Shown: positions 27,501 through 30,500 of the stretch, piece after piece | Numbering within the stretch: the first letter of the stretch is position 1 | Layout of the letters: each line of letters begins with the position of its first letter | NCBI RefSeq assembly: GCF_054482595.1 | Contig: NZ_CM137008.1 | Length of the DNA: 64,000 nucleotides | Reading direction: 5' to 3' (one strand) | Position numbers: made by a program

Positions 27501-30500
27501 TAAAACTGGCGCGGAAGTAAAACGTCAGGATATCGAATCCAATCTGCAATATGACGCGGGCGATAAAGGTATTTACCGTCACTACATGCAGAAAGAGATC
27601 TACGAACAGCCGAACGCGATCAAAAACACCCTTACCGGGCGCATCAGCCACGGTCAGGTTGATTTAAGCGAGCTGGGACCGAACGCCGACGAACTGCTGT
27701 CGAAGGTTGAGCATATTCAGATCCTCGCCTGTGGTACTTCTTATAACTCCGGTATGGTTTCCCGTTACTGGTTTGAATCGCTGGCAGGTATTCCGTGCGA
27801 CGTCGAAATCGCCTCTGAATTCCGCTATCGCAAATCTGCCGTGCGTCATAACAGCCTGATGATCACCTTGTCACAGTCTGGCGAAACCGCAGATACCCTG
27901 GCGGGCCTGCGTCTGTCGAAAGAGCTGGGTTACCTTGGTTCACTGGCAATCTGTAACGTTCCGGGTTCTTCTCTGGTGCGCGAATCCGATCTGGCGCTAA
28001 TGACCAACGCGGGTACAGAAATCGGCGTGGCATCCACTAAAGCATTCACCACCCAGTTAACTGTGCTGTTGATGCTGGTGGCGAAGCTGTCTCGCCTGAA
28101 AGGTCTGGATGCCTCCATTGAACATGACATTGTGCATGGTCTGCAGGCGCTGCCGAGCCGTATTGAGCAGATGCTGTCTCAGGACAAACGCATTGAAGCT
28201 CTGGCAGAAGATTTCTCTGACAAACATCACGCGCTGTTCCTGGGCCGTGGCGATCAGTACCCAATCGCGCTGGAAGGCGCATTGAAGCTGAAAGAGATCT
28301 CTTACATTCACGCTGAAGCCTACGCTGCAGGTGAACTGAAACACGGTCCGCTGGCGCTGATTGACGCGGATATGCCGGTTATCGTTGTTGCGCCGAACAA
28401 CGAATTGCTGGAAAAACTGAAATCCAACATTGAAGAAGTTCGCGCGCGTGGCGGCCAATTGTATGTCTTCGCCGATCAGGATGCGGGTTTTGTAAGTAGC
28501 GATAACATGCACATCATCGAGATGCCGCATGTGGAAGAGGTGATTGCACCGATCTTCTACACCGTTCCGCTGCAGTTACTGGCTTATCACGTCGCGCTGA
28601 TCAAAGGCACCGACGTTGACCAGCCGCGTAACCTGGCAAAATCGGTAACGGTTGAGTAATATTATTCATTTGCTGAACGAAGGGCTGCCTTTTGGCGGCC
28701 CTTTTACTTACCAGCATTAATAATCTAACCTCATTCCATATAATTAACTTCAGCTATTATTTGGGGCACCGTTGAACACTTGTTTTAACCGTAGTAGTAA
28801 TTAAATACCTCGAATCATTGACAAACAATTGCCATAATTGACGTACTTTGTAATGAATAGCACGTTTTGTTCATTCAAGAATCGCTTGTAAAACAATCAT
28901 CAATATGTAATTTTATTTAACTATGTAACAATGTGTGATAATAAATTATCACTGTAAATATATAGTCTTTCCACAAATATAGGCAAAAAATATAATTTGA
29001 ATGTGTGGTTTACTAAAAATAAGACTGTTTTCTACGCAAATTCATAGTTGTGGATTATGTAAATATGAAAAAATTGTCTGCTTTGAGATGTGTGATATAA
29101 TTAAAAAATCACCTCATCATAAAAATAATATTTATATCCATTTATTATTCCCTCTTCTTTTAAGCAATCACATAACGATATAAATTTAGTTTTGCTTAAC
29201 ACCCAATTTAATTTATCTAAATGTATAAAATAAAAACCACTTGCGCCAAAGTATATTGGTAGTACTATTTGGTTTCTGATCAAATACCGATCAGGTTTAT
29301 CCAAATTTAATAAATGGATAACACACAGGAATAATATCAAATTAATGGAGTTATATTTATGAAACCAAATATGATTGTAGGAGCATTAGCGTTAACTTCT
29401 GTGTTTATGGCAGGTCACCTACAGGCGGCTGATGGAACAGTCCATTTCCGTGGTGAAATTATTGACAGTACTTGCGAAGTCACTCCTGAAACTAAAGATC
29501 AGGTCGTTGACTTAGGCAAAGTAAACCGTACAGCCTTTAGTGGCGTCGATGATGTGGCTGCCCCGACGGCTTTTTCTATCGATCTGACTCAATGCCCGGA
29601 AACCTTTAAGTCCGCCGCAATTCGTTTCGATGGTAATGAAGATGCTCATGGTAATGGCAACCTGGCAATCGGTACCCCGCTTGATAACTCTAACGATGCT
29701 GCCGCTGGTATTAGCCCGAGTGATAACAGTGGGGATTATACTGGTGCGGGTGCCGTTAGTGCAGCGAAAGGCGTAGCTATTCGTTTATATAACCGTGCAG
29801 ATAACACTCAGGTCAAGTTATATGAAAATTCTGCATCAACTCCGATTTCTAATGGTAATGCATCCATGAAGTTCATGGCTCGTTATATTGCTACGGAAAC
29901 GACTATTGACCCTGGTACAGCTAACGCCGACTCGCAGTTTACAGTTGAATATATAAAATAAATCATTCTTAACATAATACCTTAAATAAAATGGCGCTCG
30001 CCATTATGGTTCTCTTTTACTTAAAAGAAGGGCGTCATTATTATATTTTTATGAGATACATTTATGCCTATGTATTTACTTAGATTGTTTTTTGCTGTTA
30101 CTTTGATTACGCAGATGTCGATGGCTATGGCTGGTATTGTTGTTGGGGGAACTCGCGTTATTTTTTATGGTGACAAACCTGATACTACAATCTCTATTTT
30201 TAATAAAGAAACGAACCTTCCTTATCTATTGCAGACATGGGTTGATCCATTTAATAAAGAGGATAAAAGCAAACCGCCATTTTCTGTGATACCTCCCGTT
30301 TCTCGCATTGAACCGCAGCAAGAGAAAATATTACGCATTTTAAAAACGGCTGGCGAGTTACCAAAAGATCGAGAGTCCGTATTCTGGTTGAACGTGAAAA
30401 ACATCCCTCCTTCAATTGATAAAAAAAATACCAATGTTCTTGAGATAGCCATAAAAACAAGAATTAAGTTATTCTGGCGACCAGCCGCGGTAAAGATAAT

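Follow-up and report, generated by a model that had tools for sequence, protein, structure and literature searches.

The lpf2 fimbrial island between glmS and pstS of Escherichia coli was not delivered by a Tn7-like transposon

The 3' end of glmS serves as the target of transposon Tn7, whose TnsD protein requires no more than the terminal 36 bp of the gene, the sequence at the insertion point itself being irrelevant (PMC2918618). Within the TnsD-binding part of attTn7 (+58 to +23), seven positions are critical, namely +31, +33, +42, +43, +45, +51, and +54 (PMC2918618). The DNA downstream of glmS is also the known location of a fimbrial operon, lpf2, which sits between glmS and pstS (PMC2608844, PMC6033998). 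For Escherichia coli O157:H7 and O104:H4, the production of lpf2-group fimbriae and their role in adhesion are established in the literature. A second operon type, lpfO113, is found in LEE-negative STEC, in O104:H4, and in many phylogroup B1 strains; it occupies the same slot. The Stg fimbriae of S. Typhi and avian E. coli were reportedly placed in the glmS-pstS region by Lymberopoulos et al. in 2006; a literature search linking Stg and glmS turned up nothing useful, and the Salmonella synteny, with an operon following glmS, was seen here directly in contigs.

The stretch of DNA analyzed here (hereafter the window) comprises 64,000 nucleotides of contig NZ_CM137008.1; all features described below lie on the given strand (+). 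The window is a segment of an E. coli chromosome: only two nucleotides differ from strain XH990 (NZ_CP019359.1) across the first 50 kb, and positions 56001-64000 are 99.95% identical to that genome, with a small indel near 57232. Over the matching 64 kb, the annotation of XH990 comprises core genes, the fimbrial operon, and a small number of effector-like genes, and nothing else. The gene at 26830-28659 codes for a protein of 609 aa that matches the glmS equivalog model TIGR01135 with 898 bits, and it is annotated as glmS in XH990. Downstream of it lie the five genes of a chaperone-usher fimbrial operon (29359-35519) and then pstS (35731-36771; NF008171, 744 bits). For comparisons with K-12 we used MG1655 (NC_000913.3), which was taken as the reference because NZ_CP032679 lacks pstSCAB-phoU. 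The window glmS differs from that of K-12 by 41 evenly spread SNPs, five of them within the last 183 bp, and no recombination breakpoint inside glmS was visible from the SNP density versus K-12.

The fimbrial operon combines genes for a major subunit, a chaperone, an usher, and adhesin-like minor subunits, as deduced from NCBIfam models. Scores above the model cut-off were obtained for the major subunit gene lpfA2 (29359-29961; NF011817, 356.7 bits at a cut-off of 203; RefSeq lpfA2, WP_000804045.1) and the chaperone gene lpfB2 (30064-30750; NF011818, 384.3 bits at a cut-off of 317). For the usher and the StgD-like subunits, the model matches are strong yet remain below the equivalog cut-offs: the outer-membrane usher gene lpfC2 (30772-33306) reached 757 and 733 bits with the best two usher models, both halves of the minor subunit/adhesin gene lpfD2 (33318-34409) match StgD and LpfD models, and the second adhesin-like subunit gene lpfD'2 (34437-35519) matches the StgD model with E = 4.9e-71. 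A premature TAG at 33882-33884 splits lpfD2 into two ORFs in the window, whereas the closest genomes, XH990 and 2013C-4465, have TGG at this position; the function of the fimbriae in the strain from which the window derives is uncertain as a result. Positions 28400-29400 of the window are 99.3% identical to an O157:H7 genome, with which the LpfA2 accession is shared, and the operon occupies the same location between glmS and pstS as O-island 154 of O157:H7. Thus, 29359-35519 is the lpf2 operon, i.e., O-island 154 of O157:H7, a member of the Stg/Lpf2 group. It is preceded by an A+T-rich non-coding region (28710-29358, ~25-34% G+C) that is presumed to be regulatory; promoter-like matches in it were not above chance (8 versus 5.6 ± 2.5 expected). 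Past the last fimbrial gene, a hairpin with a 9-bp stem (35526-35547, -14.6 kcal/mol) may act as operon terminator.

With regard to attTn7, the final 36 bp of the window's glmS ORF (28624-28659) correspond to the TnsD-binding part as defined in PMC2918618. When aligned to attTn7 of K-12, this part contained a single difference, a T to A exchange at 28647 in the wobble position of a Val codon; it corresponds to attTn7 +35, which is not among the critical positions, and all seven of the latter are unchanged versus K-12. The 20-nt spacer from the stop codon to the Tn7 insertion point (28660-28679) is unlike K-12 from 28662 on, and the same 20 nt are found on the glmS side of Tn7R in the Tn7-bearing strain 2013C-4465. 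The insertion point itself (28680-28684) reads AAGGG and comprises the five bp that are duplicated by Tn7. Only one copy of AAGGG is present in the window, indicating that the site is unoccupied. From glmS position 1648 to the stop codon (the last 183 nt) and over the next 25 nt, the window is identical to 2013C-4465. The TnsD site with its one non-critical change, the identity to a strain that carries Tn7, and the single AAGGG together indicate that attTn7 of the window is, as judged from its sequence, an intact, empty, and usable target. In comparison with K-12, the 36 bp bound by TnsD are intact and the offset of the insertion point (nucleotides 21-25 past the stop codon) is equal; the DNA at the insertion point differs: in the window it belongs to the 5' arm of a hairpin (AAGGG), in K-12 to the 3' arm of another terminator (GCGGG). 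This difference is immaterial to Tn7 (PMC2918618).

The hairpin in question extends from 28679 to 28708, with arms at 28679-28689 and 28694-28704, a G+C-rich core at 28682-28701, a TTTT loop, and a short T run. A 66-nt segment folded with -25.4 kcal/mol (z = -5.2), and none of 200 shuffled sequences was as stable. The hairpin is unrelated to the glmS terminator of K-12; its stem GGGCTGCC/GGCGGCCC is common to the window and the O113-type spacer, and it is nearly identical to the glmS hairpins of Klebsiella oxytoca and Enterobacter sp. JUb54, whose spacers are empty. In every operon-bearing locus, a hairpin begins approximately 13-24 nt past the glmS stop codon. The hairpin of the window belongs to the fimbrial-operon spacer type. 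Its stem is strong and its T tail short. A simple scan for consensus terminators did not call it, because few T residues are left in the tail once the A-T pairs join the stem; part of the tail TTTTACTT is able to pair with upstream A residues. Most likely, this putative terminator ends glmS transcription. It spans the Tn7 insertion point, so that Tn7 would land in its 5' arm. An Rfam scan of 28000-36000 gave no matches.

To the left of the island, the window matches K-12 through TAA plus TA when both are aligned at the stop codon, and from 28662 on the identity drops to random level. An earlier note on this DNA had placed the island junction immediately after the glmS stop codon and in the attTn7 region; both statements hold, the K-12 match ending at 28661 and the last 36 bp of glmS being the TnsD site with the insertion point at 28680-28684. 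The K-12 downstream sequence given there, TAATAAATGGATGCCCTGCGTAAGCGGGGC, is found exactly in MG1655, and the different terminator hairpin that had been described at 28682-28709 is real, these coordinates covering the core stem and the T-rich tail. On the right side, identity to K-12 returns at the Pho boxes of pstS (junction 35625/35626), and the pstS promoter region with these boxes (35626-35730) is 98% identical to K-12. The consensus of the Pho box is CTGTCATAWAWCTGTCAY. In a BLAST comparison of the 313-bp K-12 spacer with the window spacer, only the last 105 bp matched, corresponding to 35626-35730. Thus, 28662-35625 (6,964 bp, including the lpf2 operon) stands in place of a K-12-specific spacer of ~207 bp, no part of which was found by BLAST at either side of the island; vice versa, no remnants of a fimbrial operon were detected in the K-12 spacer. 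The G+C content of the island amounts to ~25-47% over much of its length versus ~52-54% in glmS and pst.

Natural Tn7 insertions supplied the decisive evidence. Tn7 copies were sought in 5,426 complete E. coli genomes, using the Tn7L end, which adjoins the class 2 integron, as query. Among these genomes, 99 chromosomal Tn7 copies were located. In strain 2013C-4465, a Tn7 of 14,067 bp lies between glmS and lpfA2, the sequence reading ...GAACGAAGGG|Tn7 (14,067 bp)|AAGGGCTGCC..., and in strain HN68 Tn7 lies between glmS and lpfA-O113. Tn7R starts 25 nt past the glmS stop codon in both strains. The duplicated nucleotides 21-25 past the stop codon are AAGGG in the lpf2 background (2013C-4465) and GGGCT in the O113 background (HN68); mini-Tn7 in K-12 shows the same offset, with GCGGG as the duplicated sequence. 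In both operon-bearing backgrounds, the fimbrial operon is found beyond Tn7L and is not part of the transposon. Positions 28662-28679 (18 nt), which are already unlike K-12, stay on the glmS side of the natural Tn7. The island junction at 28662 therefore lies 18 nt upstream of the Tn7 duplication (28680-28684), a geometry that argues against Tn7-type delivery: an insertion of this type into a K-12-like site cannot leave an 18-nt stretch unlike K-12 on the glmS side. Divergence from K-12 begins 3 nt past the stop codon, whereas an authentic Tn7 starts at 25 nt.

Searches for components of a Tn7-like element gave a consistent picture. A tblastn search with TnsA-E of Tn7 against the whole 64-kb window identified no Tns homologues (best E = 0.17), and the XH990 annotation contains no transposition genes across the matching 64 kb. 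The 22-mers of the Tn7 TnsB sites had no match in the window at ≤3 mismatches, a threshold that leaves very degenerate ends of a Tn7 relative beyond reach, and the terminal 12-mer of Tn7 matched at chance level, never near the island. An inverted repeat linking the island ends was not observed either, the best score being 10 versus a mean of 8.3 and a maximum of 12 for shuffled sequences. No convincing 5-bp target-site duplication flanks the island. The only candidate was the 7-mer AGTAATA (28655 and 35606), for which the chance expectation in the search space is ~0.15 or more by our own estimate. It was rejected: no TGT/ACA termini abut it, and its right-hand copy lies inside a motif upstream of the Pho boxes, ATCAAT.AGT.AT, that is conserved across four genera and hence does not represent a target duplication. 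The lpf2 island was not delivered by a Tn7-like transposon. The statements of the earlier note that the window contains neither transposition genes nor transposon ends and that the island is not a recognizable Tn7-like element are borne out, with genes, ends, duplication, and geometry all against such an element. The three checks proposed there had the outcomes given above, i.e., no end-repeat 22-mers, AGTAATA within the conserved motif as the only repeat, and an alignment to K-12 attTn7 with 28647 as the sole change in the TnsD site and divergence from 28662.

Three spacer types account for nearly all of the 5,426 complete E. coli genomes, with 3,066 genomes of the K-12-type, 1,957 of the O113-type, and 348 of the lpf2-type. 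The same lpf2 allele as in the window was also identified in Escherichia sp. E1V33. The far commoner O113-type resembles the window in that its right boundary lies at the Pho boxes and a homologous hairpin, GGGCTGCC....GG[C/T]GGCCC, starts ~20 nt past the stop codon. It differs in having four genes (lpfA-O113 to lpfD-O113) instead of the five of lpf2 in the window, and its chaperone and usher genes are only ~67% identical to those of the window at the DNA level (60-65% for the proteins). Homologues of LpfA2 are widespread. In all four contexts investigated (two Salmonella contigs, an Enterobacter-like scaffold, and a Kluyvera contig), the A-B-C-D operon of the LpfA2 homologue lies directly 3' of glmS, and Pho boxes are located at its far end. 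In three of them pstS follows directly past the operon; in the fourth, three extra genes intervene. No transposition genes were found at these four loci. Chaperone and usher of the window both share 85% identity with one Salmonella allele, versus 65% and 64%, respectively, with the O113-type of E. coli, and GlmS is 98-100% identical among all these loci. Most of the sampled Enterobacterales species representatives that have both genes contain a short empty glmS-pstS spacer of 239-436 bp. The K-12-type terminator GCCCTGCG.AAGCGGGGC is kept in such empty spacers of E. albertii, S. enterica subsp. arizonae, and Citrobacter.

We consider it probable (roughly 85%) that the locus represents an ordinary attTn7 with a hairpin beside an lpf2 operon that did not arrive by Tn7, and that the spacer has been exchanged as a unit by homologous recombination. 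The whole spacer, terminator and operon, would be inherited and exchanged as one cassette through crossovers in the flanking genes, which are highly conserved. Divergence would then become detectable at the stop codon, where coding constraint ends, and would halt at the Pho boxes of pstS; with crossovers in conserved flanks, the onset of divergence would mark only the end of coding constraint. Given the even SNP density of glmS versus K-12, no crossover point is visible, and the recombination mechanism is an inference. The overlap with attTn7 would be positional only, Tn7 and the cassette both using the first dispensable DNA past an essential conserved gene. The cassette itself appears to be old and exchangeable and to reside in a conserved slot. 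As most sampled representatives have a short empty spacer, the operon could be either an old resident that was often lost or the product of repeated import.

A transposon origin in the distant past, with the island as the cargo of an ancient glmS-targeting Tn7-like element whose tns genes and ends have decayed or been deleted, is largely refuted, and we regard it as exceedingly unlikely. It would account for the presence of the island in the sole locus targeted by TnsD-bearing elements of the Tn7 family, and genuine Tn7 does occur at 99 chromosomal places among the 5,426 genomes. However, divergence 3 nt past the stop codon, i.e., 18 nt ahead of the Tn7 duplication at nucleotides 21-25, does not fit this origin, and end motifs, terminal inverted repeats, a target duplication, and Tns homologues are all missing; AGTAATA, as the only flanking direct repeat, is part of the conserved ATCAAT.AGT.AT motif. 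Moreover, the ancestral spacer has been replaced rather than split, and four loci in three other genera hold the operon without transposition genes. The replaced spacer also argues against a recent, one-time event of illegitimate insertion by which foreign DNA entered a K-12-like spacer in one E. coli lineage at an accidental position: the K-12 spacer would remain split on both sides, yet all ~207 bp are gone. The low G+C content of much of the island relative to its flanks and the restriction of the lpf2-type to 348 of 5,426 genomes would agree with such an event, which is nevertheless improbable in view of an O113-type operon with the same boundaries and a homologous hairpin, of related operons filling the slot in three other genera, of a window allele that resembles a Salmonella allele more closely than it does the second allele of E. 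coli, and of the same lpf2 allele in Escherichia sp. E1V33.

The occurrence of the operon in several genera could alternatively point to strictly vertical descent, with the operon already carried by the ancestor that these genera share, all empty spacers including that of K-12 resulting from deletions, and no lateral exchange. The glmS-ABCD-pstS synteny across four genera and the GGGCTGCC-type hairpin that follows glmS in Klebsiella oxytoca and Enterobacter sp. JUb54, where the spacer is empty, are in line with this scenario. It conflicts with the relationships of operon and host, the ushers of E. coli and Salmonella sharing 85% identity and those of the two E. coli alleles only 64%, and with the conservation of the K-12-type terminator itself in E. 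albertii, S. enterica subsp. arizonae, and Citrobacter, and is very unlikely. Since both spacer types cross genus boundaries, either a very old polymorphism or exchange is needed. More speculatively, the glmS-pstS gap of Enterobacteriaceae might be a long-lived slot whose cassettes are older than the genera or are swapped between them, possibly with a targeted process other than Tn7 fixing the left boundary; the near identity of the E. coli cassette hairpin to the glmS hairpins of Klebsiella oxytoca and an Enterobacter strain would, in that case, point to the lineage that served as donor. We assign a very low probability to this extended version and favor the exchange of the whole spacer by homologous recombination in conserved flanks.

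The content of the locus, an lpf2 (OI-154) operon, an empty attTn7, and a cassette-type glmS hairpin, is already known, and the analysis is of little significance past housekeeping. The lpf2 island is confirmed to lie outside the Tn7 family, and the analysis suggests that strains with the island keep a usable, empty attTn7, which is relevant to tagging with mini-Tn7. A mini-Tn7 insert would be expected to land at 28684/28685, within the glmS hairpin and ~675 bp upstream of lpfA2. A conserved essential gene beside dispensable DNA would draw both a site-specific transposon and cassettes exchanged by recombination. The conflict between the relationships of fimbrial operon and host is a modest point of population genetics and does not point to a new system.

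A collection-wide pattern scan with the glmS 3' end, covering 100,044 species, also returned matches in many distant phyla, which by our own estimate are chance matches arising from codon degeneracy and were discarded. The glmS-pstS gap is variable in general, and other cargo was observed in this spacer in several other genera: a Pluralibacter genome contained genes for an AraC-type regulator and an amidohydrolase, an unclassified Enterobacterales genome a radical SAM/SPASM enzyme, an Erwinia genome a LysR-type regulator, and Edwardsiella a glycosyltransferase. The cargo of these four spacers is unrelated and non-mobile, and it is free of transposition genes.

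Both E. coli fimbrial cassettes (lpf2-type and O113-type) are accompanied by a hairpin stem that is almost identical to the glmS hairpin stems of Klebsiella oxytoca (locus L052, 410–500) and Enterobacter sp. JUb54 (locus L056, 1323–1400; coordinates of both given with glmS oriented forward). The stem in these two genomes reads GGGCTGCC....GGC[A/G]GCCC and lies in empty spacers, i.e. short glmS–pstS gaps lacking a fimbrial operon, while in Escherichia, Salmonella, and Citrobacter the glmS hairpin of the empty spacers has a different stem. The shared stem could point to the lineage from which the E. 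coli cassettes came; alternatively, the likeness may have arisen by convergence.

A pattern scan of genome contigs from 100,044 species was carried out with the 33-nt glmS 3′ end, using E. coli-like codons with five wobble positions left free (loci L008–L127). Exact matches came from numerous phyla far removed from E. coli (Bacteroidota, Actinomycetota, and Bacillota among them) and were attributed to the universally conserved GlmS C-terminus together with chance codon agreement across this number of species. The distant-phylum matches make evident that a TnsD-type target is widely available.

In one Salmonella enterica contig (locus L130, 14038–18130), the glmS–pstS interval contains a fimbrial operon followed by genes for an SgrR-like regulator, a shikimate-dehydrogenase-like protein, and a PTS EIIBC component; in view of these three additional genes, the slot is able to gain further cargo. 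In NZ_CP032679.1 (locus L001), a K-12 MG1655 derivative deposited as 'MG1655', bglG directly follows glmS, and pstSCAB-phoU therefore appear to be deleted.

Within lpfD2, a premature TAG is present at 33882–33884, where both the near-identical genome XH990 and the lpf2-type strain 2013C-4465 have TGG (Trp). Thus, the adhesin-like subunit of the window strain is broken into ORFs of 188 and 170 amino acids.

Downstream of phoU (40816–47700), at the position of the bgl operon in K-12, the window seems to hold another island specific to the strain. It carries the genes for a pentapeptide-repeat protein (43801–44988, minus strand) and an 802-aa protein (45289–47697; RefSeq name in strain 2013C-4465: T3SS effector EspY4), neither of which gave a Pfam match at E ≤ 1e-5. 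Between tnaCAB and mnmE lies a 726-aa ORF (57221–59401), for which the XH990 counterpart bears the annotation ShET2/EspL2-family type III effector. The window differs from XH990 by a small indel close to position 57232, at the beginning of the ORF.
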